Both the position numbers and the translations under genes were made by a program. Positions 1 through 20,133 of a stretch of 32,339 nt of DNA are shown piece after piece. Position 1 is the first letter of the stretch; each line of letters starts with the position of its first letter. The stretch covers positions 1 to 32,339 of IMG/VR virus record IMGVR_UViG_2526164646_000008, one strand, 5' to 3'. This DNA is from a virus (lineage: Duplodnaviria > Heunggongvirae > Uroviricota > Caudoviricetes). A model generated the notes under the pieces. It did not search any database. It was not told where the DNA came from and worked only from the letters and a program-made list of their open reading frames with translations.

Positions 1-241
1 TATCCAGCTCTGAATCCGGTGCCTGTGCCCGGATGAAGACGGCAATATGCAGAACAGCCTGCCAGTCATCTTCATCCGTCATTTTTCCGGTGTACTGAGC
101 ATCACTCAGCCACACCGCCACGGCAGGCAGTTCCTGCGCATCAATAAATGCCGGAAGCCCGTCAAAAAACGTGGCGCTGTCTCCACACTGTTCCCGAAGG
201 CGTGCCAGCACGCTCTGACGGATTTGTGTGTGTCGGTTCAT
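1..241 (-). CDS. Phage minor tail protein, lambda gpU-like (5' part; gene runs past window start)
   Basis: Minus-strand reading from ATG 241..239 gives MNRHTQIRQSVLARLREQCGDSATFFDG..., recalled similarity to lambda U; ATGA overlap with upstream Z-like stop; FI-FII-Z-U synteny. Confidence 0.6.
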   Translation of the reverse strand, partial: MNRHTQIRQSVLARLREQCGDSATFFDGLPAFIDAQELPAVAVWLSDAQYTGKMTDEDDWQAVLHIAVFIRAQAPDSELD

Positions 242-828: not shown

Positions 829-1186
829 AATATCGTCCTGCCCTTACGTTTCCCGGCAGCCCCTCACGCCGCAACCGGATATAACTACATCCGCCATCAT
901 CAGGGGTGATACGATCCACACAGAAAGACTCACGACCAATCATCAGCGAATCATTGCGACACAGCCGTAAAATATCTGCTGTTTTCACAAACAGGGATGG
1001 TAAAGAGTCTTCAATACGCACACCGCCGGCCACCAGAGAAATATTTTCAGGATCATCAAAAACCCCGGAAATCATGATCCCTTTTAGCCGGCCTGACGTA
1101 ATGACCGCTCTAATCCCCATATTGCGAATAATGGCCTTGTCTGCGAGATCAAGTGCAACATCAAACAGATTATCGAAATCAGCCAC
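815..1186 (-). CDS. Head-tail joining protein, lambda gpFII-like
   Basis: 123-aa ORF MADFDNLFD...VFDDPENIS...PSLFV...PDDGG closely resembles lambda FII as recalled. Confidence 0.65.
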   Translation of the reverse strand: MADFDNLFDVALDLADKAIIRNMGIRAVITSGRLKGIMISGVFDDPENISLVAGGVRIEDSLPSLFVKTADILRLCRNDSLMIGRESFCVDRITPDDGGCSYIRLRREGLPGNVRAGRYYEGA

Positions 1187-1197
1187 GCTGCCTCCCG

Positions 1198-1599
1198 TTA
1201 TTGCATTCTGGCCAGGCCACGTTCTGTCATTCCGGCTGCCACACCGGCAAAGACACGGAACGCCATTCCCGGCGGCACAAATGCCAGAGGTTCATCCCGC
1301 GTGGCATGAAGTGCATCGGTATGCAGCGTCACCAGTGCCACGACTGTAACCAGATCATCCATATTCTGAATCACGGTCTCCGGCTGCGCTGATATCACCT
1401 CATTTTCATGTCCGGTCAGCGCATTTTCCGGGTGGGCAGACTTATCCCGGATGTCAGTGTCATCCATATTGGCAAGTTCCTCCTCCAGCTCAGCCACACG
1501 CTGCGCAATATCTGCTGCGCTTCCCGAGATATCCGGCTCACGTCCCAGCGATGCTGCCAGTTCTCTCAGACGTTTCAGGTTATCGTCTTTCTTTGCCAT
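1198..1599 (-). CDS. DNA-packaging/head completion protein, lambda gpFI-like
   Basis: 133-aa acidic ORF immediately upstream of the FII-like gene, size and position as lambda FI. Confidence 0.55.
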   Translation of the reverse strand: MAKKDDNLKRLRELAASLGREPDISGSAADIAQRVAELEEELANMDDTDIRDKSAHPENALTGHENEVISAQPETVIQNMDDLVTVVALVTLHTDALHATRDEPLAFVPPGMAFRVFAGVAAGMTERGLARMQ

Positions 1600-1861
1600 A
1601 TCTGTTCCTGTCCGAATAAAAAACGGGAGCCCGCCGTTACTTTATTCGTACCCCTTATAATGGGGTGTTAGCCAGCCAGACCCGGCATGATTACTGCCCC
1701 CAGTCGTCCATGATCCGGGGGGGATGTCACCGGGTCTGGTGGGGCGCTGGTAACCGCTAATAGGGGTCAGGTCAGGCACTTTTGCCGGGACCGTCTGTAA
1801 CGTGGATGCCGGTACCTGCTCCCCGTGGTTATCTGGTTAACCCATATACAAGGGAGACAGA

Positions 1862-3057
1862 ATGACCGAATCCAGCGATTACGAATCCGTCCAGGTCTTT
1901 ATCGGCGTTGATGTCGGTAAAGATACGCATCACGCTGTTGCCATTAATCGTTCAGGTAAACGCCTGTTCGATAAAGCATTACCCAACGACGAAAACAAAC
2001 TCAGGTCGCTAATATCTGACCTGAAACAACATGGTCAGATACTGCTGGTTGTTGATCAGCCAGCTACCATCGGTGCGTTACCTGTCGCCGTTGCCCGCTC
2101 AGAAGGAGTCCTTGTCGGATACCTCCCTGGACTGGCCATGCGCCGCATAGCCGACTTACACGCCGGTGAAGCTAAAACTGATGCTCGTGACGCTGCCATC
2201 ATTGCCGAAGCTGCCCGTACCTGCCTCACGCGCTACGCACGCTGAAACTGGCTGACGAGCAAATCGCCGAACTCTCCATGCTCTGCGGCTTCGATGATGA
2301 TCTTGCCGCACAGACAACGCAGGCCAGCAACCGTATCCGCGGCCTTCTGACCCAGATACATCCGGCACCGGAGCGCGTTCTCGGTCCGAGACTTGAGCAC
2401 CCGGCGGTACTCGATCTTCTCCAGCGATATCCCTCACCAGAAAAACTCGCTTCGCTGGGTGAGAAGAAGCTGGCAGCCCAGCTCTGCAAACTTGCGCCTC
2501 GTCTGGGTAAACGCCTTGCAGCAGACATAGCTCAGGCACTGGCCGACAAACCGTCGTCGTTCCCGGCACGAATGCCGCTGCCGTAGTACTGCCACGTCTG
2601 GCACTCCAGCTCATCACGCTGCGTAAGCAAAGAGACGAGGTGGCGCTTGAGGTAGAACAGCGAGTTCTTGCTCACCCTCTTTACCCGGTCCTGACCAGTA
2701 TGCCCGGAGTCGGTGTCAGGACCGCAGCCAGACTCCTCACCCGAGGTCGCCTGCCGCGCCTTCGCCTCTGCCGCACATCTCGCTGCTTATGCTGGCCTTG
2801 CGCCGGTAACTCGGCGATCCGGCTCGTCAATACGCGGTGAGCATCCCTCGCGACGGGGTAATAAAGCTCTCAAACGGGCGTTGTTCCTGTCGGCCTTCGC
2901 CGCGCTCAGGGATCCGCTCTCCAGGGCTTACTACACCCGCAAAATGAGTCAGGGAAAACGACACAATCAGGCGCTTATCGCCCTGGCGAGACGACGCTGC
3001 GACGTTCTGTTCGCCATGATGCGCGACGGGACTTTTTATACCCCGCAGGGGTCATAA
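1862..3057 (+). pseudogene. IS110-family (DEDD-type) transposase, broken into >=4 frames by frameshifts and an in-frame stop
   Basis: Track ORFs 1862..2245, 2278..2586, 2640..2840, 2713..3057 together read as one IS110-like transposase (VFIGVDVGKDTHH N-terminus; SMPGVGVRTAARLL motif) in different frames; element ends not determinable. Confidence 0.6.
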
Positions 3058-3252
3058 CATGCTTGACAACTTAATAGGGGCCCCCCCCGACAGACCTGTG
3101 CTATCGGAAAGAAAAAAGGCCATCAGCAAAACTCTGATGACCTGAATCACCTTTACCAATATTGTATGAAAAAACACGCACGACTAATTGACAATAATTT
3201 TCATTTCCATTAAAAAAGATCGCGTAGCATTCTTAATTCATGAGGAACTTTA

Positions 3253-3317
3253 CCCGCCAGCAATCTGAGTAGCGAAAGCTGTTCATCCCCAATGTTTTTG
3301 CTGGCGGGTCCTTTTTT
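3253..3317 (+). terminator. Inverted repeat cccgccagcaa / ttgctggcggg followed by T-run; possible terminator or IS110-element subterminal structure
   Basis: 11-nt perfect inverted arms 3253..3263 and 3298..3308 then tccttttttc; loop is long (34 nt). Confidence 0.3.
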
Positions 3318-3756
3318 CTACGGTCCTCCTCCCCGGAGGGGGGCATTTCATTATTTTTCTAATCGTTACTGGTGAGAAGGCGGAAGAAAAAGCCAGTTCT
3401 TCGCCCCTAAATAACAGCATGATTCCAGTCCATGCAAAATCTGATTTCCAGCTCACACATACCGAGCGCTGTACAAAAAACCGCCAGCCAAGGCAGTTAA
3501 GAGTGTGTTCCCGGGGTTTGCTTAGAATATTTTGTAAGTTGTCCGAAGAGATATTTACAACACCAGAATGATGAATCATCAGTCCCCTGCCAGAGGTTCA
3601 CTACGTAACCTGACCGACAATGCACCATTCTGGTGCTGAAAAAAGAGCACTGGAACTGCAACAAAACAACATCACAGAACAGGAGATGGTAAGGAGTCAG
3701 ACATTCCCACACAATATTGTGTCAGTGCAAATAACAACCTTCGTCTCAAATCTCGC

Positions 3757-3831
<75 letters not shown>

Positions 3832-3834
3832 ATA

Positions 3835-3910
<76 letters not shown>

Positions 3911-3912
3911 GC

Positions 3913-3989
3913 TGGCCCACCACCGAGGACTCGAACCTCGGACCGTCAACTTAGAAGGTTGATGCTCTATCCGGATGAGCTAGTGGTGG
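3913..3989 (-). tRNA. tRNA-Arg (anticodon UCU), unusual C1:G72 acceptor pair
   Basis: Reverse complement CCACCACTAGCTCATCCGGATAGAGCATCAACCTTCTAAGTTGACGGTCCGAGGTTCGAGTCCTCGGTGGTGGGCCA; anticodon loop CTTCTAA; 1 nt from next tRNA. Confidence 0.65.
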
Positions 3990-3990
3990 T

Positions 3991-4066
3991 TGGTGGCCCT
4001 TGCTGGACTTGAACCAGCGACCTGGCGATTATGAGTCGCTCGCTCTCACCACTGAGCTAAAGGGCC
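3991..4066 (-). tRNA. tRNA with CAU anticodon, Ile2 (lysidine)-type, ileX/ileZ-like
   Basis: Reverse complement GGCCCTTTAGCTCAGTGGTGAGAGCGAGCGACTCATAATCGC...GGTTCAAGTCCAGCAAGGGCCACCA, near-identical architecture to E. coli ileX as recalled. Confidence 0.7.
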
Positions 4067-4158
4067 GGAGGCAGAATAATAACCATATGTCATCACATCT
4101 GCAAACTCATCTGACCACCAGCACGTTTAACGTCCTGTGCCATTTTTCAGGCATAAAA

Positions 4159-4186
4159 AACCGCTCGGCGGCGGGTTTTGCTTACT
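4159..4186 (-). terminator. Weak GC hairpin plus T6 on minus strand between Q-like gene and tRNA cluster (tR'-like position)
   Basis: Minus strand reads AAAACCCGCCGCCGAGCGGTTTTTT; stem only about 4 bp. Confidence 0.3.
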
Positions 4187-4241
4187 TTACCATCGCGTAC
4201 AAAATCGGCAAAGTATCAGATTTGCATGAGATATATGCCTT

Positions 4242-4937
4242 TTAATCTACTTTTGCAATACTTTGCTTTGAAAATGCCGCTTTTTGTTCTGAACGTGTTC
4301 TCATCACAAACAATAAAGCCTCACTATCCAGTCGGTGAAAAATGTGTTTCATTACAACCCAGTGACCAGTAAATGTTTTGGACCAGTTTTTGGTTGTTAC
4401 TCCCGCCAGTAATGCCAGCTCCTGATATTCATAACCTTCCCCACCAAAAAGTTCTGCTTTTACCGCCTGCGCCGCCAGCCAGATTAATTTTTTCAGGCGT
4501 TCCTGTGTTTTCTCTGCAATTTTCCTAGTGCCAGAATGAGCCTTAAACTCTTCCCACGCCCAGTGGGTTATGGTGATCTGATACTCCCAGCAAATACTTC
4601 CGCTGTAACACCACAACAACCAGGCTTTATAGTGCTCTTCAAGAGACAGAACAGCCCGCCGCCACGATGATGTCGAAAACGCAACCTGACTGACCAGAGG
4701 AATTGACGCCCCCTTCGCCAGTGATTGTTTTCCCGGGATTGGTGGATTATCCCGCGTTATCATTTTTCCGGTCACCTCATCGCGGTACCGGATTTTTTTA
4801 CGCCTGTAACGCCCTGTATCGAACATGGCATTCTCCTGCCAGGCTTCAAGCTGACCTTTTGTCGCCCCACTCAAATCAGCGGTGGCGATAATGAGCTGCT
4901 CACGAACAAACTGTAAATACTGGTTATTCATGCACAC
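4242..4937 (-). CDS. Putative late-gene antiterminator (Q-like, 231 aa)
   Basis: Position immediately downstream of rusA and upstream of the phage tRNA cluster, as Q in lambdoid phages; 10-nt overlap with rusA; assignment is by synteny, sequence not recognised with certainty. Confidence 0.45.
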   Translation of the reverse strand: MCMNNQYLQFVREQLIIATADLSGATKGQLEAWQENAMFDTGRYRRKKIRYRDEVTGKMITRDNPPIPGKQSLAKGASIPLVSQVAFSTSSWRRAVLSLEEHYKAWLLWCYSGSICWEYQITITHWAWEEFKAHSGTRKIAEKTQERLKKLIWLAAQAVKAELFGGEGYEYQELALLAGVTTKNWSKTFTGHWVVMKHIFHRLDSEALLFVMRTRSEQKAAFSKQSIAKVD

Positions 4938-5287
4938 TCCAGCTCTGTGATTTTTATCCCCAACCGACCACCAGGAACAGGCAGTCCGCGCACAATATTG
5001 GTTTCATCAAACTGCTCGTCGTCGATAAGCAACCCCGCATGTGTCAGTGCATCCAGTGGTGCTTTCAGGATATTGTCCAGGTCACGACGCCGCTTATCCG
5101 GTGGCTCTGCAATAATCTTTATCGCCAGTCTTCCGGACAGGCTTAATTTCAGTCGCTGCTGACGGACAATAAGCGCCACATCCCGGCGATAACGCTCACC
5201 GGCTTTTGATACAAAATATGTGCTGCCACGACGTCGCCAGTAAGTATTCACCGTCGGCGGATAAGGTAAAATAAACTCATGGCGCAT
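4928..5287 (-). CDS. rusA: Holliday-junction resolvase RusA
   Basis: 119-aa ORF with RusA hallmark ...PDKRRRDLDNILKAPLDALTHAGLLIDDEQ...GGRL..I.I.E. Confidence 0.7.
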   Translation of the reverse strand: MRHEFILPYPPTVNTYWRRRGSTYFVSKAGERYRRDVALIVRQQRLKLSLSGRLAIKIIAEPPDKRRRDLDNILKAPLDALTHAGLLIDDEQFDETNIVRGLPVPGGRLGIKITELECA

Positions 5288-5426
5288 CAGCGCAGCACCT
5301 CCTGCACCAGCTTTTCAAACTTTCCGACTCTGGTTTCCAGCTCTGCCACACAGTCCACCAGCTCATCTACTGCTTTCTGTGCGCGATGCTTCGCCTGCAT
5401 CAGTTCCCGAAGCGCGGGTACCATAT
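5287..5426 (-). pseudogene. 3' fragment of a phage gene truncated at its 5' side by IS600 (native part ...MVPALRELMQAKHRAQKAVDELVDCVAELETRVGKFEKLVQEVLR)
   Basis: Track ORF 5287..5475 starts inside the IS600 end ([16 protein letters not shown] is IS-derived, same 16 aa as ORF 18533); TGATG stop/start overlap with rusA. Confidence 0.5.
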
Positions 5427-5490
5427 TGAGGTAGCCTGAGTTTAACGGACACTCCTTCCTGAAATAGAATGGCATCAGAAGGAGCTAATA

Positions 5491-5778
5491 ATGAGCAGAA
5501 AAACCCAACGTTACTCTAAATAGTTCAAAGCCGAAGCTGTCAGAACGGTTCTTGAAAATCAACTTTCGATCAGTGAAGGCGCTTCCCGATTATCCCTTCC
5601 TGAAGGCACTTTAGGACAATGGGTTACCGCCGCCAGAAAAGGGCTCGGTACTCCTGGTTCCCGCACGGTGGCTGAACTGGAATCTGAAATTCTGCAACTG
5701 CGTAAGGCGTTAAATGAAGCTCGCCTTGAGCGCGATATATTAAAAAAGCAACAGCGTATTTTGCACAGGAGTCGCTGA
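5491..5778 (+). pseudogene. IS600 orfA with premature stop at codon 11
   Basis: TAG at 5521..5523 (tactctaaaTAGttcaaagcc) where copy 2 has GAG (YSKEFKAEA). Confidence 0.75.
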
Positions 5779-5827
5779 AAAATACGCGTTAATCGAACAA
5801 TGGCGACAACAATTTCCCATTGAAGCG

Positions 5828-6646
5828 ATGTGTCAGGTATTTGGTGTATCCAGGAGCGGTTATTACAACTGGGTACAGCATGAACCCTCAGACAGAAAAC
5901 AAAGTGATGAGCGGCTAAAACTGGAGATTAAGGTGGCACATATCCGCACTCGCGAAACATATGGAACCCGGCGGCTCCAGACGGAGCTGGCAGAGAATGG
6001 CATCATCGTTGGTCGTGACCGACTGGCACGTCTTCGTAAGGAGCTGAGGCTACGCTGTAAGCAGAAACGCAAGTTCAGAGCGACTACGAACCCGAACCAC
6101 AATCTGCCAGTTGCGCCAAATCTGCTGAACCAGACGTTCGCTCCTACAGCACCAAATCAGGTCTGGGTGGCGGACCTGACGTATGTTGCCACACAGGAGG
6201 GATGGTTGTACCTCGCTGGCATCAAAGATGTTTATACGTGTGAAATTGTCGGCTACGCCATGGGAGAGCGCATGACAAAAGAGCTGACAGGTAAAGCCCT
6301 GTTTATGGCGCTCAGGAGCCAGCGCCCACCTGCCGGGCTAATCCACCACTCTGATCGAGGTTCACAGTACTGCGCATACGATTACCGGGTCATACAGGAG
6401 CAGTCTGGTCTGAAAACATCAATGTCGCGTAAAGGTAACTGTTACGACAACGCTCCGATGGAAAGCTTCTGGGGAACGCTGAAAAATGAGAGCCTGAGCC
6501 ACTATCGTTTTAATAACCGGGATGAAGCCATCTCAGTAATACGGGAATACATTGAGATTTTCTACAATCGTCAGCGTCGTCACTCTCGTCTGGGGAATAT
6601 CTCCCCGGCAGCCTTCAGGGAAAAATATCATCAGATGGCTGCTTAA
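5828..6646 (+). CDS. IS600 orfB transposase (DDE)
   Basis: 272-aa track ORF, identical to copy 3 orfB and 1 aa different from copy 2 orfB. Confidence 0.85.
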   Translation: MCQVFGVSRSGYYNWVQHEPSDRKQSDERLKLEIKVAHIRTRETYGTRRLQTELAENGIIVGRDRLARLRKELRLRCKQKRKFRATTNPNHNLPVAPNLLNQTFAPTAPNQVWVADLTYVATQEGWLYLAGIKDVYTCEIVGYAMGERMTKELTGKALFMALRSQRPPAGLIHHSDRGSQYCAYDYRVIQEQSGLKTSMSRKGNCYDNAPMESFWGTLKNESLSHYRFNNRDEAISVIREYIEIFYNRQRRHSRLGNISPAAFREKYHQMAA

Positions 6647-6688
6647 AAAAGAACAAATGGTAGTGTCCGCTATTGCCAGTACACCTCA

Positions 6689-6898
6689 CAACGCCATCCT
6701 GACAAGCGTTTTATCTTCAACGGGAATGAGATATGGAAACGTGGAGAATCAACCACAGAGTATACCCGCGCACACCAGCGAACAATCAGACGACTGCGCA
6801 GACTCATCGCCAGGAAACAGTATACAGAAAAATGGTTCAGAAAATATGACACATGGAGCGCCGGATATTACGAACTGATGGCAACAAAACCATTCTGA
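6689..6898 (+). pseudogene. Orphan 3' gene fragment (69 codons, no start) reading out of the IS600 right end
   Basis: Open frame from 6689 to TGA 6896..6898: QRHPDKRFIFNGNEIWKRGESTTEYTRAHQRTIRRLRRLIARKQYTEKWFRKYDTWSAGYYELMATKPF; protein-like composition; absent from ORF track because it lacks a start. Confidence 0.4.
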
Positions 6899-6958: not shown

Positions 6959-7147
6959 ATGAACATTTATTTCAGAATAGTTATATCACTGGCAATTATC
7001 GCATGTATTTACGGATTAATCGTTCCGGCCCTCATATCAATGAAGGATACGGTAGCAGTGATTTCTGGCTTTGCTCTGGCGTGTCTGACCCCGCCCTGCA
7101 TTTATGCCATTTATAAGGGTCTTTCTTTTTCTAAGGATAAAAGATGA
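6959..7147 (+). CDS. Small membrane protein (62 aa, two hydrophobic segments)
   Basis: Strong SD aggagga 6 nt upstream of ATG; stop overlaps start of next gene (ATGA). Confidence 0.55.
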   Translation: MNIYFRIVISLAIIACIYGLIVPALISMKDTVAVISGFALACLTPPCIYAIYKGLSFSKDKR

Positions 7148-7971
7148 AAAAAGTTATTCCTGCTTTAGCCCTTGTTCTGCTGACCACCGGACTTGTCGGT
7201 TGCGATCGCGTTGAGCCTGGTAATGTTGGCATCAAGGTAAACAAACTGGGCGACGATAAAGGCGTCGGAGAAGTGGTCGGTGTTGGGCGCTACTGGACGG
7301 GATGGAACACTGAGGTTTACATCTTCCCGACCTTCAAACAAATGAAGACCTACGATGAGCCATTCAGCTTCCAGATGAGTGACGGTACAACCATCGGCTA
7401 TCACATCGGCGTGGCCTACAAAGTTGATCCATCCAAAGTTACCACAGTCTTTCAGACCTACCGCAAAGGCGTGGACGACATTACCGACACCGACCTGCGC
7501 CAGAAGATAGCCGACGCACTCAACCGACTGGCCAGCAAAATGACCACCGACAAATTTATCGACGGCGGCAAGTCTGAGCTGCTGGATGCAGCTCTTAAAG
7601 ACATTCAGGAAGAAATGACGCCCATCGGTATTCAGGTAATGAGCCTCTCATATGTGGGTAAGCCGGAGTACCCGCCTACTGTTATCGACAGCATTAATGC
7701 CAAAGTCACGGCGAACCAGAAAACCCTGCAATGCGAGCAGGAAGTAAAACAGCGCGAAGCGGAAGCCAACATGTTGCGCGCGGAAGCTGCCGGACAGGCA
7801 GATGCGATTCGCACAAAAGCCCAGGCCGAAGCCGATGCTATTCGTTTACGCGGTGAAGCTCTGCGCCAGAACCCAAACGTTATGGAGCTGGAAGCCATCA
7901 ACAAGTGGAACGGTACACTGCCGCAATACATGACCAGCGGTGCCAACACACCATTTATTCAGGTTAAGTAA
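7144..7971 (+). CDS. Lipoprotein, probable SPFH/band-7 (prohibitin-like) family
   Basis: Signal peptide with lipobox LVGC; C-terminal Ala/Glu-rich coiled coil (AEANMLRAEAAGQADAIRTKAQAEADAIRLRGEA) typical of HflK/C-like proteins; family call from pattern only. Confidence 0.45.
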   Translation: MKKVIPALALVLLTTGLVGCDRVEPGNVGIKVNKLGDDKGVGEVVGVGRYWTGWNTEVYIFPTFKQMKTYDEPFSFQMSDGTTIGYHIGVAYKVDPSKVTTVFQTYRKGVDDITDTDLRQKIADALNRLASKMTTDKFIDGGKSELLDAALKDIQEEMTPIGIQVMSLSYVGKPEYPPTVIDSINAKVTANQKTLQCEQEVKQREAEANMLRAEAAGQADAIRTKAQAEADAIRLRGEALRQNPNVMELEAINKWNGTLPQYMTSGANTPFIQVK

Positions 7972-7978
7972 TACATAT

Positions 7979-7999
7979 GCCCGGTATTACACGCCGGGC
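7979..7999 (+). other. Hairpin gcccgg-N9-ccgggc between SPFH gene and ORF6N gene
   Basis: 6-bp GC stem seen directly; no U-tract, so probably not a strong terminator. Confidence 0.3.
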
Positions 8000-8014
8000 T
8001 GTCTGGAGATAAAA

Positions 8015-8764
8015 ATGAATACTGTAACCATCAACAACAAACAGTTTCCGGTAATCGAATATCGCGGTCAGCGTGTTGTGACGCTGGCGATGATTGATGA
8101 AGTCCACCAGCGACCGGAAGGAACCGCGCGTGCAGCATTCAACCGAAACCGTGAGCATTTCATCAGCGGTGTGGATTATGCCGAATTAGGTGCGGACGTA
8201 ATACGTACGGACCTCCCGGAAGGAACATTCTCTAAATTTGCACCATCGGGGATTGTACTTTTTGAATCAGGTTACCTGATGTTGACGAAGCCATTCAATG
8301 ACGCCCTTGCCTGGCAGGTTCAGCGCGAACTGGTTAACAGCTACTTCCGCACTCGCACACCGCTAACGGAAATCGAGATGATCGCTGCGATAGCCGCCGA
8401 CGCTGTTCGTCAACAGAAGCGCCTGAATCATGTGGAAGAACAGCTCGAAACAGTCACAGAAGCGGTGGAAACCATCAAACGCGGAAATATGCGCGCCGGA
8501 TATGTCGGTTACCGCCAGGTGGTAGCCAAAAGTGGAATGAGTGACACCAAGTGTCGGAATCTGGTGAACGCATATCAAATTCCTACAGACACCCACGAAT
8601 TCATGACTCCGGACGGTCTGTTGTCTCGCAGGGCTATCGTCGAGCTTGAGCCATTTATGGCGGCGTTCCACCAAATGATGTCAGAGGCTGACCCACGCGG
8701 CACACGCTGGTATCACCCGAAGATGGGGCTTTTCCAGGTGATCGGATGGGAGGATAAAGCATGA
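8015..8764 (+). CDS. ORF6N-domain (antirepressor-like) protein, 250 aa
   Basis: N-terminus NNKQFPVIEYRGQRVVT...NFNRNREHFISGVDY matches the ORF6N pattern FP.IE..GQRV.T....NF..N..RF.EG; SD ggaga upstream of ATG 8015 (track start 7940 is an upstream extension). Confidence 0.5.
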   Translation: MNTVTINNKQFPVIEYRGQRVVTLAMIDEVHQRPEGTARAAFNRNREHFISGVDYAELGADVIRTDLPEGTFSKFAPSGIVLFESGYLMLTKPFNDALAWQVQRELVNSYFRTRTPLTEIEMIAAIAADAVRQQKRLNHVEEQLETVTEAVETIKRGNMRAGYVGYRQVVAKSGMSDTKCRNLVNAYQIPTDTHEFMTPDGLLSRRAIVELEPFMAAFHQMMSEADPRGTRWYHPKMGLFQVIGWEDKA

Positions 8765-9330
8765 TCATCCAGTCAAAACTTATTCGCGCCGCTCTGGTGT
8801 GCGCTGCTAAAAACGACGTTCGTTATTACCTGAACGGTCTTCACATCACGCCGAAACATATTGAGGCAACCAATGGTTCCGTGGCACTGCGCATGGCTCA
8901 CGGCATCCGGACGAAGAAAAACATCATTGTCCAGTTCGAAGGGGGCGTCCCGGCCAAAGCCGAAACGACAGAGCTGATTTTTAGTAAAGAGCCGATCGCT
9001 GTTCATCGCGACCAGTTTCAGCGACGACTGTCCATTACCGGCATTAAACTGGTGGACGGTTGTTTTCCGGATTTGGATCGCATCATTCCGAAAAAGTTTG
9101 ACCGCTGTACTCACCCGGTGCTCCAGGCGGGTTACCTGAGTTATCCAGAGAAGATGTTTGGTCGTGAGCGTAAATTTATTCCCGTCCAGTTACGTCCCTC
9201 CGGTGACGGGCAAGCGGTCAGAATTCAGTTTGATTCCATCATCAACTCAATGTATGGCAATCCTGAATTTGTTGTGATGCCTTGTCGTGATCATGGCGAT
9301 TTCAACGTGGCTCAGGAGCATCCGGAATGA
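8761..9330 (+). CDS. DnaN (DNA polymerase III beta sliding clamp)-like protein lacking domain I
   Basis: Motifs DVRYYLNG, KLVDGCFPDLDRIIPK and FVVMPCR in same order and spacing as E. coli DnaN domain II-III as recalled; ATGA overlap with upstream gene. Confidence 0.5.
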   Translation: MIIQSKLIRAALVCAAKNDVRYYLNGLHITPKHIEATNGSVALRMAHGIRTKKNIIVQFEGGVPAKAETTELIFSKEPIAVHRDQFQRRLSITGIKLVDGCFPDLDRIIPKKFDRCTHPVLQAGYLSYPEKMFGRERKFIPVQLRPSGDGQAVRIQFDSIINSMYGNPEFVVMPCRDHGDFNVAQEHPE

Positions 9331-9854: not shown

Positions 9855-10019
9855 ATGGGCAATGTGATTCAACTGGCTCCCAATGAATGGGTTTGTGAAA
9901 GCGTTCTAATCGCAATTACCGGGCTCAAACCAGGCACAATTCTTCGGACCCGGAAAGAATGCTGGATGGTTGGAAGAGAGTATATTCACGTATCACCAGA
10001 CGGTAATCCAAAGCCTTCT
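9855..10019 (+). pseudogene. Excisionase-like gene, 3' end removed by IS911
   Basis: MGNVIQLAPNEWVCESVLIAITGLKPGTILRTRKECWMVGREYIHVSPDGNPKPSE then IS911-derived codons; homologous to the xis-like ORF at 22577. Confidence 0.45.
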
Positions 10020-10026
10020 GAAGTGG

Positions 10027-11195
<1,169 letters not shown>

Positions 11196-11324
11196 TGGAG
11201 CACCTGTGTTGTTCTGAGGTGAGCATATCACCTCTGTTCAGGTGGCCAAATTCAGTGTGCCACTTCAAATCTTGCCAGAGCTAGTATTGCACTGTCTGGC
11301 ATACACAATCGTTCCAGTAATCAA

Positions 11325-11788: not shown

Positions 11789-11847
11789 ATGTTGATTGGT
11801 ACCTTTGGCGGCATCAGTTTCATTGCTGGCTGATGTCCGCCCTTTTT
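11789..11847 (+). ncRNA. dicF: DicF-like small RNA candidate with intrinsic terminator
   Basis: ttgattggtacctttggcggcatcagttt... resembles the 5' half of E. coli DicF (UUUCUGGUGACGUUUGGCGGUAUCAGUUUU) as recalled; ends in hairpin ggcgg-c-atcag/ctgat-gt-ccgcc (11807..11841) plus T5. Confidence 0.4.
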
Positions 11848-12143
11848 AAAGTGAATTTTGTGATGCGGTGAATGCGGCTGAGCGCACGCGGAACAGTTAA
11901 AAAGCGATTAGTTCCCACGTATCGGGTGGTTATGGGTTTCCCTGTATCCGGCGTTAATTGTTAACTGGTTAACGTCACCTGGAGGCACCAGGCACCGCAT
12001 CAACAAAGTTCACTTCGGTGATGAAAGGTAAGAGAAAATGTTGAATGTAGCTATTGAAAACCAGAACGGGTGGAATTATAGTGCATCTGCACCTCATAAA
12101 ACGGGGGCCGGGCGTGGAAACCCGAACGTTACTCGAGCGCATA

Positions 12144-12165
12144 GCCGCGCTGAAGCGGTTTTTTT
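12144..12165 (+). terminator. Short GC hairpin (ccgc-gctgaa-gcgg) followed by T7
   Basis: Seen directly; 4-bp stem, strong U-tract. Confidence 0.3.
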
Positions 12166-12967
12166 ATGCGTAATGCACAGCTCCATTCAAATTATGGTGG
12201 GATGTGCAGGGCAGTCGCAAGACTGGCCGGGTTCTCGAGTGACCGGTATTTCCACCCCTGTACGTCTCACCACCCTTATGGTCGTGGAAAACCTCGGTGG
12301 TGAGTTAATTAACTTATCACTCGAGGATGCCATCATGGCTACTATCCCTGCCCTTTCTCACCCTGACGTAACCATCGAAAACGGTCGCGCTGTCACTACG
12401 TCTGTTGCGGTTGCAGAGTTCTTCCACAAACGACACGACAATGTGTTACGTGCCATCGCAAATACTGAATGCTCACCTGAATTTAACGCCCTCAATTTTG
12501 AGGACGTCACCTACACCGACACCAAAGGCGAAAAACGCCCAATGTACCAAATCACCAAAAACGGCTTCGTTTTCCTGGTGATGGGCTTCACTGGGAAAAA
12601 AGCCGCTGCATTCAAAGAGGCCTACATCGCTGATGTTCGACCGCATGGAGGCAGAACTGCACCAGAATAATACCCCGTCCGCTGACAAGATGATTCCGGG
12701 TAACGGTCGCACTCTGGTTGTGCACTTCGACGAACACGGCAATATCAGATTCACCGAAACTGTTCCTGACGGTGCACTGGTCTGTACCCTGGATACTTTC
12801 CAGTTTTATCTGGAAAAACAGGGGTGGGCTCTTGTAAACCGGAGCGCAATTAAAAATATGACCGTAGAGCAGCTGCTAGACTGGCCCCCTGAATCTCCAG
12901 ACAACCAGTATCACTTATTTAAGTGATAGTCTTAATACTAGTTTTTAGACTAGTCATTGGAGAACAG

Positions 12968-13333
12968 ATGATTGATGTCTTAGGGCCGGAGAAACGCAGA
13001 CGGCGTACCACACAGGAAAAGATCGCAATTGTTCAGCAGAGCTTTGAACCGGGGATGACGGTCTCCCTCGTTGCCCGGCAACATGGTGTAGCAGCCAGCC
13101 AGCTATTTCTCTGGCGTAAGCAATACCAGGAAGGAAGTCTTACTGCTGTGGCCGCCGGAGAACAGGTTGTTCCTGCCTCTGAACTTGCTGCCGCCATGAA
13201 GCAGATTAAAGAACTCCAGCGCCTGCTCGGCAAGAAAACGATGGAAAATGAACTCCTCAAAGAAGCCGTTGAATATGGACGGGCAAAAAAGTGGATAGCG
13301 CACGCGCCCTTATTGCCCGGGGATGGGGAGTAA
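12968..13333 (+). CDS. insC: IS2 orfA (InsC)
   Basis: [56 protein letters not shown]... Confidence 0.85.
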
Positions 13334-14196
13334 GCTTAGTCAGCCGTTGTCTCCGGGTGTCGCGTGCGCAGTTGCACGTCATTCTCAGACGAACCGATGA
13401 CTGGATGGATGGCCGCCGCAGTCGTCACACTGATGATACGGATGTGCTTCTCCGTATACACCATGTTATCGGAGAGCTGCCCACGTATGGTTATCGTCGG
13501 GTATGGGCGCTGCTTCGCAGACAGGCAGAACTTGATGGTATGCCTGCGATCAATGCCAAACGTGTTTACCGGCTCATGCGCCAGAATGCGCTGTTGCTTG
13601 AGCGAAAACCTGCTGTACCGCCATCGAAACGGGCACATACAGGCAGAGTGGCCGTGAAAGAAAGCAATCAGCGATGGTGCTCTGACGGGTTCGAGTTCTG
13701 CTGTGATAACGGAGAGAGACTGCGTGTCACGTTCGCGCTGGACTGCTGTGATCGTGAGGCACTGCACTGGGCGGTGACTACCGGCGGCTTCAACAGTGAA
13801 ACAGTACAGGACGTCATGCTGGGAGCAGTGGAACGCCGCTTCGGCAACGATCTTCCGTCGTCTCCAGTGGAGTGGCTGACGGATAATGGTTCATGCTACC
13901 GGGATAATGAAACACGCCAGTTCGCCCGGATGTTGGGACTTGAACCGAAGAACACGGCGGTGCGGAGTCCGGAGAGTAACGGAATAGCAGAGAGCTTCGT
14001 GAAAACGATAAAGCGTGACTACATCAGTATCATGCCCAAACCAGACGGGTTAACGGCAGCAAAGAACCTTGCAGAGGCGTTCGAGCATTATAACGAATGG
14101 CATCCGCATAGTGCGCTGGGTTATCGCTCGCCACGGGAATATCTGCGGCAGCGGGCTTGTAATGGGTTAAGTGATAACAGATGTCTGGAAATATAG
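13291..14196 (+). CDS. insD: IS2 orfB (InsD transposase)
   Basis: 301-aa track ORF. Confidence 0.85.
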
Positions 14197-14272
14197 GGGC
14201 AAATCCAGCTGCTAAGTATTAAATAACTTTCCTGAGATTTCCTTTGTAAGACTGTTTATTAAGGAGGCTTCC

Positions 14273-14494
14273 ATGATTGCTCATCACTTCGGAACTGATG
14301 AAATACCACGTCAGTGTGTGACTCCTGGCGATTATGTTCTTCATGAAGGTCGGACATATATCGCCTCGGCAAACAATATTAAAAAGCGAAAACTTTATAT
14401 TCGTAGCCTGACTACAAAAACATGCATTTCTGACTGCATGATTAAAGTCTTCCTCGGTCGTGATGGTTTACCTGTAAAGGCGGAGTCATGGTAA
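14273..14494 (+). CDS. kilR: KilR-like small protein (73 aa; Rac-type FtsZ-inhibiting killing protein)
   Basis: Strong SD aaggagg 5 nt upstream; 73 aa as KilR; sits in kilR-ydaE-racC-recE order as in Rac prophage; identity from recollection and synteny. Confidence 0.5.
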
Positions 14495-14664
14495 TGACTA
14501 AGAAAATAAAATGTGCTTATCACCTTTGCAATAAAGAAATTGAAGAAAGCAAAATCATTACAAGACCACTTCATTTCATGCGTGGAGTTATACCAACGAC
14601 GGAAATGAAAAAATATTGTAGTGAAATCTGTGCCGAAAAAGACCAGATGGCACACGAACTTTAA
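14488..14664 (+). CDS. ydaE: YdaE-like zinc-ribbon protein (58 aa, two CxxC pairs)
   Basis: [17 protein letters not shown]...[17 protein letters not shown]; start overlaps kilR-like stop; below ORF-track size cutoff. Confidence 0.45.
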
Positions 14665-15039
14665 TTAACTGACTATCCGAAACTGAATTTATGCCAGCAA
14701 TGGCAGGGATTCGCTCAACCTTAATTAAGGAGAAAAACATGATTACCAGTTATGAAGCCACTGTTGTAACTACTGATGACATTGTTCACGAGGTTAATCT
14801 GGAAGGAAAGCGTATTGGCTACGTGATTAAGACAGAAAATAAAGAAACCCCATTCACTGTGGTTGATATCGACGGTCCATCAGGCAACGTTAAAACACTT
14901 AACGATGGTGTAAAAAAAATGTGTCTGGTGCACATAGGAAAGAATCTGCCCGCAGAAAAAAAAGCCGAATTTCTGGCAACTCTGGGTAATGCTGCCAACT
15001 TACTGATTTAGTGTATGATGGTGATTTTAAGGTGCTTGC

Positions 15040-15315
15040 GTGGCTTCCATTTCCATCAGATGTCCTTCCTGCTCCGCTACTGAAGGCGTGGTGCGTAACG
15101 GCAAAAGCACTGCCGGACATCAGCGCTATCTCTGCTCTCATTGCCGTAAAACATGGCAACTACAGTTCACTTACACCGCCTCTCAGCCCGGTACGCACCA
15201 GAAAATCATTGATATGGCCATGAATGGCGTCGGATGTCGCGCCAGTGCACGCATTATGGGCGTTGGCCTCAACACGGTTTTACGTCACTTAAAAAACTCA
15301 GGCCGCAGTCGGTAA
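15040..15315 (+). CDS. insA: IS1 InsA
   Basis: 91-aa track [43 protein letters not shown]... Confidence 0.85.
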
Positions 15316-15737
15316 CCTCGCGCATACAACCGGGCAGTGATGTGATTGTCTGCGCTGAAATGGACGAACATTGGGGCTACGTCGGTGCTAAATCACGTCA
15401 GCGCTGGCTGTTTTACGCGTATGACAGGATACGGAGGACGGTTGTGGCGCACGTCTTCGGTGAACGCACTCTGGCCACACTGGAGCGTCTTCTGAGCCTG
15501 CTGTCGGCCTTTGAGGTCGTGGTATGGATGACGGATGGCTGTCCGCTGTATGAATCACGCCTGAAGGGAAAGCTGCACGTTATCAGCAAGCGTTACACTC
15601 AGCACATTGAGCGACATAATCTGAATCTGAGACAACATCTGGCAAGGCTGGGACGGAAGTCACTGTCGTTCTCAAAATCGGTGGAGCTGCATGACAAGGT
15701 CATCGGGCATTATCTGAACATAAAACACTATCAGTAA
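15234..15737 (+). CDS. insB: IS1 InsB (InsAB' transposase made by frameshift)
   Basis: 167-aa track ORF. Confidence 0.85.
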
Positions 15738-15789
15738 GTTGGAGTCATTACCCAACTCTGATTGCAATGAAATTAAAAGGTGAAATCTG

Positions 15790-15819
15790 AAAAAAAGAAA
15801 GCCTGCACACTGTGCAGGC
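15790..15819 (-). terminator. Perfect palindrome gcctgcacactgtgcaggc with U-tract only on the minus strand
   Basis: 19-nt palindrome 15801..15819 preceded on the plus strand by aaaaaaagaaa, i.e. followed by TTTCTTTTTTT on the minus strand. Confidence 0.35.
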
Positions 15820-15889
15820 CTGAATGAAGAACCTGGGACATTTATTCATCACTCGCAGTAATTTTAATCTGAGTTGAGGTTAAAAAACA

Positions 15890-17314
15890 ATGAACACCGA
15901 TAAACAAGTTTACCCACTGTATTACGAAGCAAAAAATGACAAAGTAAGAAAACGTCTCGGTATTAAAGGCGGTTTTTACTGGGCTGAAGCGAAAAAATTA
16001 TCCATTGCCATCTCCCGTGGTGCTGTTGCGATTGACGATGCAGGCTACGATGAAGATGACTTTAAAAAACCTGTTCGCGTCAATTTGCCCGTTGTTGATG
16101 ACCTCCCGCCAGAAGGCGTATTTGATACGGAATTCTGCAACCGTTACGAAAAAGGCGGGGAAGATGGCATCACAATGGTATTTATCGCATCTTCTCCCTC
16201 TGTTCAGGACAAACCGGCCAGCACTGACAATACCAACGTCAACGGCGAAGACATGACAGAAATTGAGGAGAACATGCTCCTGCCAGTTTCCGGTCAGGAA
16301 CTGCCCATTCGCTGGCTTGCGCAACACGGCAGCGAAAAACCAGTAACGCACGTTTCACGCGACGAACTCCAGGCATTACACATTGCTCGGGATGAAGAAC
16401 TACCAGCTGTTACTGCCCTGGCTGTTTCCCACAAAACCAGCCTGCTCGATCCGCTGGAAATTCGCGATCTCCACAAACTGGTGCGTGATACTGACAGAGT
16501 TTTCCCTAATCCAGGCAATTCAAGCCTGGGGCTGATGACTGCTTTTTTCGAAGCATACATGGACGCAGACTACACCGATCGCGGTCTGCTGACAAAAGAG
16601 TGGATGAAAGGAAATCGTGTTTCACGCATCACGCGCACGGCTTCCGGCGCTAATGCTGGCGGCGGGAACCTCACCGATCGCGGCGAAGGTTTCGTTCACG
16701 ATCTGACGTCACTGGCGCGCGACGTAGCCACTGGCGTACTGGCTCGTTCAATGGACGTGGACATTTATAACCTTCATCCGGCACACGCTAAACGTGTCGA
16801 GGAAATTATCGCTGAAAATAAACCGCCCTTTTCTGTTTTCCGCGACAAATTCATCACCATGCCTGGCGGGATGGATTATTCCCGCGCCATCGTGGTTGCG
16901 TCAGTGAAAGAAGCACCGATTGGTATCGAGGTCATCCCCGCTCACGTCACTGAATATCTGAACAAGGTACTGACTGAAACCGATCATGCCAACCCTGATC
17001 CGGAAATCGTGGATATTGCCTGCGGTCGCTCCTCTGCCCCGATGCCGCAACGTGTAACAGAAGAAGGAAAACAGGATGATGAAGAAAAAACGCAGCCATC
17101 TGGCGCAATGGCAGATGAACAGGCAACGGCTGAAACAATGGAACCGGATGCAACTGAACATCATCAGAACACGCAGCCGCTGGATGCTCAGTCACAGGTA
17201 AATTCTGTTGATGAGAAATATCAGGAACTACGGGCAGAACTCCATGAAGCCCGGAAAAACATTCCGCCCAAAAATCCTGTCGATGCAGACAAATTACTGG
17301 CTGCCTTGAGGTAG
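15890..17314 (+). pseudogene. recE: RecE (exonuclease VIII)-like gene, N-terminal non-catalytic region only; 3' end removed by IS600
   Basis: 474-aa ORF with acidic, low-complexity stretches ([19 protein letters not shown]...) recalled from Rac RecE; stop TAG 17312..17314 lies inside an IS600 end remnant; native sequence ends at 17306. Confidence 0.5.
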
Positions 17315-17318
17315 CCTG
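17307..17318 (+). repeat. 12-nt IS600 left-end remnant (tgaggtagcctg) abutting the right end of IS600 copy 2
   Basis: Identical to the first 12 nt of the IS600 left end at 5427..5438. Confidence 0.7.
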
Positions 17319-17361
17319 TGAGGTGTACTGGCAATAGCGGACACTACCATTTGTTCTTTTT

Positions 17362-18180
17362 TTAAGCAGCCATCTGATGATATTTTTCCCTGAAGGCTGC
17401 CGGGGAGATATTCCCCAGACGAGAGTGACGACGCTGACGATTGTAGAAAATCTCAATGTATTCCCGTATTACTGAGGTGGCTTCATCCCGGTTATTAAAA
17501 CGATAGTGGCTCAGGCTCTCATTTTTCAGCGTTCCCCAGAAGCTTTCCATCGGAGCGTTGTCGTAACAGTTACCTTTACGCGACATTGATGTTTTCAGAC
17601 CAGACTGCTCCTGTATGACCCGGTAATCGTATGCGCAGTACTGTGAACCTCGATCAGAGTGGTGGATTAGCCCGGCAGGTGGGCGCTGGCTCCTGAGCGC
17701 CATAAACAGGGCTTTACCTGTCAGCTCTTTTGTCATGCGCTCTCCCATGGCGTAGCCGACAATTTCACACGTATAAACATCTTTGATGCCAGCGAGGTAC
17801 AACCATCCCTCCTGTGTGGCAACATACGTCAGGTCCGCCACCCAGACCTGATTTGGTGCTGTAGGAGCGAACGTCTGGTTCAGCAGATTTGGCGCAACTG
17901 GCAGATTGTGGTTCGGGTTCGTAGTCGCTCTGAACTTGCGTTTCTGCTTACAGCGTAGCCTCAGCTCCTTACGAAGACGTGCCAGTCGGTCACGACCAAC
18001 GATGATGCCATTCTCTGCCAGCTCCGTCTGGAGCCGCCGGGTTCCATATGTTTCGCGAGTGCGGATATGTGCCACCTTAATCTCCAGTTTTAGCCGCTCA
18101 TCACTTTGTTTTCTGTCTGAGGGTTCATGCTGTACCCAGTTGTAATAACCGCTCCTGGATACACCAAATACCTGACACAT
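17362..18180 (-). CDS. IS600 orfB transposase
   Basis: 272-aa track ORF. Confidence 0.85.
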   Translation of the reverse strand: MCQVFGVSRSGYYNWVQHEPSDRKQSDERLKLEIKVAHIRTRETYGTRRLQTELAENGIIVGRDRLARLRKELRLRCKQKRKFRATTNPNHNLPVAPNLLNQTFAPTAPNQVWVADLTYVATQEGWLYLAGIKDVYTCEIVGYAMGERMTKELTGKALFMALRSQRPPAGLIHHSDRGSQYCAYDYRVIQEQSGLKTSMSRKGNCYDNAPMESFWGTLKNESLSHYRFNNRDEATSVIREYIEIFYNRQRRHSRLGNISPAAFREKYHQMAA

Positions 18181-18229
18181 CGCTTCAATGGGAAATTGTT
18201 GTCGCCATTGTTCGATTAACGCGTATTTT

Positions 18230-18517
18230 TCAGCGACTCCTGTGCAAAATACGCTGTTGCTTTTTTAATATATCGCGCTCAAGGCGAGCTTCATTTAACG
18301 CCTTACGCAGTTGCAGAATTTCAGATTCCAGTTCAGCCACCGTGCGGGAACCAGGAGTACCGAGCCCTTTTCTGGCGGCGGTAACCCATTGTCCTAAAGT
18401 GCCTTCAGGAAGAGATAATCGGGAAGCGCCTTCACTGATCGAAAGTTGATTTTCAAGAACCGTTCTGACAGCTTCGGCTTTGAACTCTTTAGAGTAACGT
18501 TGGGTTTTTCTGCTCAT
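18230..18517 (-). CDS. IS600 orfA
   Basis: 95-aa track [27 protein letters not shown]... Confidence 0.85.
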
Positions 18518-18904
18518 TATTAGCTCCTTCTGATGCCATTCTATTTCAGGAAGGAGTGTCCGTTAAACTCAGGCTACCTCAGAGCGCTTATCCGATTTTT
18601 GATCGTATTGAAGAAATGGCATGGGCTCGTCACTACCAGCAGATCGTTCGTGAAGAAAAAGAAACGGAACTGGCGGACGACCTGGAAAAAGGTCTGCCTC
18701 AGCACCTGTTTGAATCGCTCTGCATCGACCATTTGCAACGCCACGGTGCCAATAAACAGGCAATCAGCCACGCATTTGATGATGATGTTGAGTTTCAGGA
18801 GCGCATGGCAGAACACATCCGGTACATGGCTGTGAAGTGGCACACTGAATTTGGCCACCTGAACAGAGGTGATATGCTCACCTCAGAACAACACAGGTGC
18901 TCCA

Positions 18905-20073
<1,169 letters not shown>

Positions 20074-20133
20074 CCACTTCACTGAAACCATTGCCCACCA
20101 CCAGGTTGATATTGATTTGGAGGACTAAAATCT

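Follow-up and report, generated by a model that had tools for sequence, protein, structure and literature searches.

The window analysed here is a 32,339-nt stretch of DNA in which positions 14273–17314 carry kilR, ydaE, racC and a truncated recE (recE') in the Rac order. All four genes match curated families when searched with family models. The block is an ordinary IS-riddled Rac-type prophage remnant of Shigella flexneri, and its features and those adjoining it are as follows.

11794–11842, + strand: small DicF-like RNA, including a terminator-like hairpin, with homology to the K-12 kilS / kilR 5'-UTR region
12054–12082, + strand: sigma-70 promoter-like site (TTGAAA-17-TATAGT, 10/12 matches), just before isrK
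12089–12165, + strand: isrK-family RNA (Rfam RF01394, 59.6 bits, gathering score 50)
12190–12277, + strand: C4 antisense RNA (Rfam RF01695, 76.7 bits, gathering score 45)
12335–12876, + strand: 5' part of a Rha-family regulator (antirepressor-type) pseudogene (TIGR02681, PF09669)
12877–14207, + strand: IS2, 1331 bp, transposase genes co-directional with kilR
14208–14272, + strand: IS2–kilR spacer, 65 bp, comprising the native Rha–kilR intergenic region and the Shine-Dalgarno sequence
14273–14494, + strand: kilR, intact, 73 aa (222 bp), inhibitor of FtsZ and MreB
14494–14664, + strand: ydaE, intact, 56 aa (58 aa with the start at 14488), four Cys conserved
14739–14984, + strand: racC codons 1–82, the frame continuing through 8 IS1-encoded codons to a stop at 15009–15011
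14985–15752, + strand: IS1, 768 bp, strain-specific, with an 8-bp duplication on each side
15761–15790, + strand: racC codons 83–91 and stop, from the K-12 alignment
15890–17306, + strand: recE', the first 472 codons of a RecE-family gene, with PF06630 as sole domain
17307–17318, + strand: IS600 left-end stub, TGAGGTAGCC, possibly followed by TG, by comparison with the complete IS600 copy at 5427–6690
17317–18581, − strand: complete IS600, inverted relative to the stub and overlapping it by 2 ambiguous bases
18582–18832, continuing from 20085, + strand: gam (host-nuclease inhibitor, PF06064), its ATG missing the first two bases
18833–20081: IS911 in gam, duplication CTG

The first-pass annotation had described kilR as an intact frame behind a strong Shine-Dalgarno sequence, and both are present, with AAGGAGG (14261–14267) lying 5 nt before the ATG. 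The product shares 69 of 73 residues with K-12 KilR (94.5% identity), carrying S45, C51, S53 and C55 relative to it, and matches NCBIfam NF008465 over residues 1–73 of 73 with 160.9 bits (cut-off 92); in sister loci the identical protein carries the PF27398 label. The same amino-acid allele occurs in 11,967 blocks of the collection, among them intact E. coli prophages that have a full RecE, RecT and a repressor. KilR toxicity requires the C-terminal 12 residues, and even low induction is highly toxic (PMC12482147). These 12 residues are identical to those of K-12, and the protein, if made, should act as it does there, blocking FtsZ rings and, at higher dose, MreB as well. A literature search for kilR in Shigella gave nothing specific beyond Liu et al. 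2015, in whose list four S. flexneri strains have no rac-like prophage in ttcA (PMC4632033).

The K-12-type start of ydaE at 14494 overlaps the kilR stop codon (TAATG) and gives 56 aa; the 58 aa reported previously hold for the ATG at 14488, and gene callers use both starts in related genomes. YdaE is 73% identical to its K-12 counterpart, belongs to family NF041288 / PF27493 (NF041288, 87.7 bits, cut-off 35), and has C7, C12, C42 and C46 aligned with those of K-12. Joining the two parts of racC restores a 91-aa product 96.7% identical to K-12 RacC, which without IS1 scores 204 bits against NF007306 (cut-off 171). As it stands the 91-aa frame is interrupted, IS1 replacing codons 83–91 by 8 foreign codons. 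The 8-bp target duplication CAACTCTG is found at 14977–14984 and 15753–15760, and sister S. flexneri genomes carry the empty site, at which two alignment blocks overlap by 8 bp, confirming that IS1 split racC with a clean duplication. This IS1 is present in locus L003 and absent from L004–L010, and racC is intact in most sister strains.

Upstream of kilR, the DicF-like RNA scores 38.8 bits against the Rfam DicF model, below the gathering score of 48 (E 3e-6); its hairpin spans 11810–11837, and blastn matches it to K-12 and locus L002 upstream of kil. The isrK RNA ends in an intrinsic-terminator-like hairpin (12143–12160) followed by a T run, and a c4-a1b1 match is weak (18.3 bits, far below threshold). 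Translation of the Rha pseudogene places a frameshift near 12632, ahead of IS2, with the last codons (SIK and stop) at 14213–14222; an intact 282-aa homologue is found in E. coli RMDEC465 (L013). The ends of IS2 and its 5-bp duplication, GCTGC (12872–12876 and 14208–14212), were read directly, and the IS2 junction is identical in 11 sister loci. Homology of the IS2–kilR spacer to an intact Rha–kilR prophage (L015) is contiguous.

It had been suggested that kilR may still be expressible. Only the translation signals speak for this: no promoter-like site lies between IS2 and kilR, and the window lacks the region of the repressor and the early promoter. A crude consensus scan of the + strand from 12877 to 14272, which weak, extended −10 or non-sigma-70 promoters could escape, found no promoter-like site. 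The best sigma-70-like site of the region, by consensus match alone, is that at 12054–12082, a candidate for the nearest source of read-through into kilR. From its surroundings, kilR appears to have no promoter of its own, and expression could come only from read-through, which would start at the isrK promoter 2.2 kb upstream or in IS2. Such transcription would have to pass a terminator, pseudogene RNA that is not translated, and IS2, from which we infer that kilR is most likely not expressed, or only very weakly. The transposase transcript of IS2 runs toward kilR, an observation that points away from silence.

An intact kilR among broken neighbours had also been pointed out, but this pattern is not a signal. 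With ~0.52 IS elements for every kb outside such elements, the chance that a 222-bp gene is spared is P ~0.89; ydaE is also intact, as is racC in most sisters. A single synonymous change separates the DNA of kilR and ydaE from that of their counterparts in intact E. coli prophages. Retention of kilR is most likely neutral, selection appearing to be absent, and kilR and ydaE would have stayed untouched because they are short targets. A selective explanation, which we regard as unlikely, is that kilR was kept together with ydaE as a domesticated stress checkpoint in S. flexneri: oxidative stress would lower Rho/NusG termination, read-through would reach kilR, and division would be transiently arrested as in K-12, IS2 having only swapped the upstream transcript source. 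In K-12, kilR is kept silent by Rho/NusG and de-repressed through OxyS, and KilR aids recovery from H2O2 through OxyS and NusG and contributes to nalidixic acid and azlocillin tolerance (PMC5793797, PMC4632033). The strong Shine-Dalgarno sequence and a scan that found no terminator-like site between IS2 and kilR are compatible with such a role, as is the intactness of kilR in 12 of 12 S. flexneri-type loci examined, where the sole variant is a conservative V22I. The IS2–kilR arrangement is likewise conserved in every S. flexneri locus examined, as selection for retention would also produce. However, intactness is what chance predicts; kilR differs from loci L018, L021 and L023 by 1 synonymous and 0 non-synonymous changes, too few for purifying selection to be gauged; ydaE and recE' vary just as little, a sign of recent common descent and not of constraint on one particular gene; and the native regulatory region is gone. 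That kilR–ydaE forms a selected, host-beneficial division-arrest module, in which Rho/NusG-gated read-through from IS2 or the isrK promoter replaces phage repressor control, is decidedly improbable; if true, it would represent an IS-rewired domesticated prophage toxin in a pathogen facing oxidative stress inside host cells.

We consider it very improbable that IS2 itself is an active source of kilR transcription, whether its right end supplies an outward or fusion promoter or transposase transcripts read through, with KilR made constitutively at a low, tolerated level or at one that affects cell shape. The element is co-directional and only 65 bp upstream, and IS3-family right ends carry an outward −35 able to form fusion promoters, documented for IS2 at ampC, acrEF and neoR (PMC9330008). 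Inspection by eye of the right-end −35 TGGAAA (14186–14191), for canonical hexamer and spacing only, found no −10 at 16–18 bp: the flank 17–18 bp past it reads CTGCTA or TGCTAA, matching 0–2 of 6 −10 consensus positions, and the promoter scan finds no site there. The high toxicity of KilR (PMC12482147) also means that constitutive expression would probably be counter-selected. A silent or nearly silent kilR, neutrally retained, is the reading we prefer.

The recE' ORF (15890–17314) does have the 474 codons given in the first-pass annotation, but its native part ends at 17306, after 472 codons and 1 base, and the last two codons and the stop, to 17314, are derived from IS600. The junction is not a plain IS600 end but a 10–12-nt IS600 stub abutting the inverted complete element, whose ends were read directly and which is 99.7% identical to the copy at 5427–6690 in a self-BLAST. 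S. flexneri SFBU1023 shares this exact junction, and the 474-aa product occurs in 865 blocks of the collection, with IS2–kilR–ydaE upstream in 8 of 8 among the places listed. Against the RecE / exodeoxyribonuclease VIII equivalog NF007259, recE' scores 922 bits, below the cut-off of 1269, over model positions 1–474 of 877. A Pfam scan of recE' found only PF06630 and not the nuclease domain PF12684, which is present in both K-12 RecE and the RecE of L018. The product has no match in the PDB; the nuclease structure 3H4R comprises K-12 RecE residues 605–866.

The gene thus ends at IS600 and is without a nuclease domain, as had been described, but the implied loss of that domain is unsupported. 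A natural nuclease-less RecE-family gene of 642–671 aa, with no PD-(D/E)XK domain, is found in the Rac-type prophage at ttcA of E. coli FDAARGOS_944 (L024) and in its relatives RMDEC465 and CP088028 (L014). Downstream of recE', the gam, AAA ATPase, xisR and intR genes are collinear with L024 at 96–99% identity, and window base 18582 aligns to L024 base 6753, the L024 gam ATG being at 6751. Because nuclease-less RecE is followed by gam in these collinear E. coli prophages, only ~0.5 kb is missing here, and the comparison suggests that both the RecE nuclease domain and recT were probably missing from the ancestor already. A tblastn search with K-12 RecT found no adjacent partner, nor any match in the window. 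Having neither nuclease nor RecT partner, the recE' fragment is recombinationally inert. The truncated recE should be annotated as descending from the natural nuclease-less RecE–gam arrangement, and not from a K-12-type RecET pair. An origin of recE'–IS600–gam by IS600-mediated fusion of two prophages was considered and rejected: three independent E. coli prophages have the nuclease-less recE contiguous with gam, and L024 is collinear all the way to intR.

The Rac early-left gene order proposed for the block is confirmed by the family models, the K-12 identities and its collinearity with intact E. coli Rac-like prophages, with which the block minus its IS elements aligns over 2258 bp at 96–97% identity with 0–1 gaps. 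Rac-type xisR and intR are present at the prophage end: tblastn of the window gave 95% identity to K-12 for XisR residues 13–71, and IntR residues 1–57 and 199–411 are 95–99% identical, with an internal deletion at an IS1. A chance resemblance in gene sizes and order is refuted by the 2258-bp collinearity, which cannot be chance, by the 73–97% protein identity to K-12 KilR, YdaE, RacC and RecE, by the curated family models, all of which were passed, and by the identities of xisR and intR; nothing was found in its favour. The window ceases to match K-12 and L024 at the att boundary (24426), and sitABCD lies beyond. The search for a persisting repressor, run over the window by tblastn, found no homologue of RacR or a related HTH repressor, and queries from K-12 and E. 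coli relatives likewise found no homologues of racR, ydaS, ydaT, sieB, ydaF, ydaG, recT, ralR or rcbA there.

The anatomy, homologies, junctions and empty sites described above were observed directly, and the order of events we infer from them. Most probably, the block represents the early-left part of a Rac-type lambdoid prophage, decayed in place in the S. flexneri chromosome under the heavy IS load of that species. The ancestral order would have been repressor, DUF1391 gene, DicF-like RNA, isrK, C4 RNA and Rha-family gene, followed by kilR, ydaE, racC, nuclease-less recE, gam, AAA ATPase, xisR and intR. The sequence as it now stands shows several changes. The side with the repressor and early promoter was lost to IS911; the Rha-family gene was inactivated by a frameshift and by IS2, 65 bp upstream of kilR; and IS600 activity deleted the ~0.5 kb that led from recE codon 473 to the start codon of gam. 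An IS911 also split gam, an IS1 deleted part of intR, and another IS1 split racC in the sub-lineage of this strain.

The biology of the kilR remnant is already known, and the locus matters little beyond careful annotation. It illustrates how prophages are taken apart as IS elements multiply in Shigella, with short toxic genes spared by chance. Were kilR conditionally expressed, it could affect the sensitivity of S. flexneri to bicyclomycin, a Rho inhibitor, and its recovery from oxidative stress, as in K-12, which would modestly extend the known biology.

Compared with the K-12 Rac early-left operon (kilR–ydaE–racC–recE–recT), the window has the same gene order and the same TAATG overlap, with identities of 94.5% for KilR, 96.7% for RacC, 73% for YdaE and 84% over RecE residues 43–463; homology ends exactly at the Rac boundary, with xisR and intR 95–99% identical. 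Unlike K-12 Rac, the window lacks recT, ralR, rcbA, racR, ydaS, ydaT and sieB, has five IS insertions in or adjoining the block, and is flanked by sitABCD instead of ttcA. The sequence just 5' of the kilR ATG is unrelated to that of K-12, the isrK–C4–Rha module occupying this place, and gam and an AAA ATPase come after the recE-family gene.

In L013, L014 and L024, the end of the nuclease-less RecE-family gene (642–671 aa, PF06630 only) overlaps the start of gam. An AAA ATPase follows gam in L013 and L024, with DUF1187, xisR and intR further along in L024; the window is 96–99% identical to L024 across recE', gam, ATPase and intR. L013 and L024 share the upstream Rha-family gene with the window. 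Unlike it, they lack kilR and keep the repressor; their YdaE-family gene is longer, their third small gene is a different one, and their IS insertions (ISSso6, ISEc60) are other elements at other positions. L015, an intact E. coli Rac-like prophage, has the repressor, DUF1391, Rha (282 aa), kilR and ydaE, encodes an identical KilR protein, and is contiguously homologous to the window across the Rha–kilR intergenic region. In contrast to the window, it carries an 889-aa RecE with nuclease domain, RecT and Lar, and no IS elements.

In the immI operon of phage P1 (c4 RNA–icd–ant) and in isrK–anrP of Salmonella Gifsy-1, a gene of the antirepressor type comes after a C4- or isrK-type RNA leader. 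KilR has no sequence relationship to Icd of P1, and the gene order differs, the ant-type gene standing before kilR. As in these systems, the window combines an RNA leader, an antirepressor-type gene and a cell-division inhibitor in one transcription unit.

Inspection of the ORF list and raw sequence placed four co-directional genes on the plus strand at 14273-17314. Comparison with the K-12 Rac genes (NC_000913.3) and NCBIfam bore out the Rac-type kilR-ydaE-racC-recE early-left block described in the first-pass annotation, with RecE below its family cut-off; the observation is real and the description accurate.

Products of the four-gene block (14273-17314, plus strand): identity to K-12 and NCBIfam match
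KilR: 69/73 residues identical; NF008465, 160.9 bits (cut-off 92)
YdaE: 41/56 identical; NF041288, 87.7 bits (cut-off 35)
RacC, IS1 excised: 88/91 identical; NF007306, 204 bits (cut-off 171)
RecE-like product: residues 51-474 with 84% identity to K-12 residues 43-463; NF007259, 922 bits (cut-off 1269), model positions 1-474 of 877 only

A TAATG overlap links the stop of kilR to the K-12-type start of ydaE. The previously annotated 58-aa YdaE begins two codons earlier, and both starts are in use by gene callers. The IS1 said to split racC with a clean duplication was confirmed at 14985-15752 (768 bp), with CAACTCTG at either side. Alignments of seven sister Shigella flexneri loci (L004-L010) to the window flank the element with an 8-bp overlap, marking empty sites and thus a recent, lineage-specific insertion, also present in one further sister locus (L003).

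The homology shared with K-12 and with an E. coli Rac-like prophage breaks exactly at the kilR ATG and returns 2.26 kb leftward at 11803-12015, the counterpart of the K-12 region of kilS (described in PMC8175672) and the kilR 5'-UTR. IS911 (10019-11267) truncates the region to the left of this segment, and the intervening DNA contains the following features.

Features in the 2.26 kb left of kilR
12054-12082: promoter-like site
12089-12165: isrK RNA, above the Rfam threshold
12190-12277: C4 antisense RNA, above the Rfam threshold
near 12632: frameshift in a Rha-family gene, relative to an intact 282-aa homologue
12877-14207: IS2 interrupting the Rha-family gene, with duplication GCTGC

The Rha-kilR arrangement is native; it is uninterrupted in E. 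coli prophages with an identical KilR protein (such as the intact Rac-like prophage L015). The N-terminal half of a 210-aa ORF, labelled Phage_ASH by Pfam and preceded by a strong promoter-like site, lies exactly over the isrK and C4 RNA genes (12038-12364); this reading frame may be a by-product of the RNA genes and not a protein domain. A DicF-like small RNA with a terminator-like hairpin was detected at 11794-11842, scoring 38.8 bits and so falling short of the gathering score (48). It shares homology with the kilS region that precedes kilR in K-12, and is followed by an STnc100-like match at 11854-12007. Since DicF targets ftsZ mRNA, the DicF-like RNA would give this remnant another potential division inhibitor besides KilR.

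The KilR protein is identical to one found in 11,967 assembly-collection blocks, many of them from prophages that have a repressor and full RecET, and its DNA shows a single synonymous change relative to three copies in such prophages. The four differences from K-12 (N45S, F51C, T53S and R55C) therefore reflect not decay but a natural allele that is common. No change relative to K-12 affects the C-terminal 12 residues, which are needed for toxicity (PMC12482147). The first-pass annotation had proposed that kilR may still be expressible; its frame and Shine-Dalgarno sequence (AAGGAGG, 5 nt ahead of the ATG) are indeed intact, but expression is unsupported, as a scan of the plus strand of IS2 and the 65-bp spacer before kilR found no promoter-like site. 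Outward -35 elements at IS3-family right ends can form fusion promoters (PMC9330008); reading the IS2 right-end flank directly gave no correctly spaced -10. The closest candidate promoter, that of isrK, lies 2.2 kb upstream, and its transcript would have to cross a terminator-like hairpin in isrK, then the rest of the Rha pseudogene, which is untranslated, and finally 1.3 kb of IS2. In K-12, kilR is silenced by Rho/NusG-dependent termination and freed under oxidative stress (PMC5793797; PMC4632033). From the sequence, we infer that kilR expression is weak or none.

IS sequence makes up 35% of the window (11 elements), which gives ~0.52 insertions for each kb of non-IS DNA. At this density, a 222-bp gene escapes insertion with P ~0.89, and all three small genes escape with P ~0.71; one hit in this trio, found in one sub-lineage, matches the chance expectation. 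Divergence is too low for sequence comparison to show purifying selection on kilR.

In the assembly collection, 865 blocks carry the 474-aa product of the truncated RecE-family gene (recE', native sequence 15890-17306). All 8 listed places share the IS2-kilR-ydaE neighbourhood, 7 of 8 have an ipaH gene, and sitABCD was found at each whose locus extends to the prophage int end. Nearly all sister loci match the window at every base of the IS2-kilR junction, kilR, ydaE and recE', with KilR V22I in one strain, and S. flexneri SFBU1023 carries the exact recE'-IS600 junction.

Downstream of IS600 comes gam, whose start codon is missing two bases at its front and whose frame IS911 interrupts, followed by an AAA ATPase gene, an IS3-family element, xisR, intR and sitABCD. 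The xisR gene lacks its first 12 codons and adjoins the IS3-family element, which has an ALIL frameshift pseudoknot (21601-21717). The Rac-type integrase gene intR (22746-24322) lacks residues 58-198 at an IS1 (22916-23685), so the remnant is unable to excise by itself. Homology to K-12 Rac and to the E. coli prophage L024 stops at the att boundary, 24426, and sitABCD takes the place of ttcA at the flank (24377-24810). Adjacency of the integrase 3' end to sitA is common in E. coli genomes with sit. Here sitA (24810-25699) comprises two ORFs of 198 and 114 aa and shows two gaps when set against sitA of sister strain L004 (304 aa), reflecting either a sequencing error or a genuine frameshift in the strain; the other three genes, sitB, sitC and sitD, look intact. 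Elsewhere, 1-5290 and 7144-9330 contain pieces of other lambdoid prophage regions. These comprise genes for the tail and head (Z, FI and head-tail attachment), a fragment of an IS110-family transposase, one gene each of the Band_7/SPFH and ORF6N-domain types, and four minus-strand tRNA genes (3760-4066) beside Q antiterminator and RusA. IS911 cuts a further, weak Xis-like match at 9885-10043, the second in the window.

Native recE sequence stops at 17306 and gives way to the initial 10-12 bases of an IS600 left end (17307-17318), closing the frame with an IS-encoded Leu-Arg-stop. Beyond this stub lies a complete, oppositely oriented IS600, running to 18581. The stub beside an inverted copy suggests two IS600 events (a nested insertion) and then an adjacent deletion, presumably in that order. 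In K-12 RecE, the PD-(D/E)XK nuclease occupies residues 605-866 (PDB 3H4R; PF12684). The recE' product has N-terminal PF06630 as its sole domain, and a PDB search with it gave no match.

The recE cut annotated earlier thus does end at IS600 without a nuclease domain, but the implied nuclease loss is probably wrong. RecE-family genes that encode 642-671 aa, with PF06630 as the sole domain, are present in three E. coli prophages, RMDEC465 (L013, 7290-9215), CP088028 (L014, 4844-6856) and FDAARGOS_944 (L024, 3530-6773), where NCBI annotates them as incomplete RecE. Their products are homologous to K-12 RecE to about residue 585, then diverge into a short tail overlapping the gam start, after which come bet/exo or an AAA ATPase. 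The FDAARGOS_944 prophage sits at ttcA and is collinear with the window, with 96-99% identity over recE', gam, the AAA ATPase gene, xisR and intR. This collinearity, with the nuclease-less RecE-gam arrangement, puts the DNA missing at the IS600 junction at ~0.5 kb. The nuclease was probably not lost in the window lineage, and an ancestor with a nuclease-less RecE and without RecT is most parsimonious.

The remnant falls short of a complete Rac locus in several respects: the flank is not ttcA, the RecE nuclease is lacking, and the window contains no repressor and no RecT, tblastn of the whole window finding no homologue of a RacR-type repressor, YdaS/T, SieB, YdaF/G, RecT, RalR or RcbA. By gene content, gene order and integrase, the remnant is a Rac-type prophage, and its components all belong to families already described, in a species that has been sequenced and annotated.
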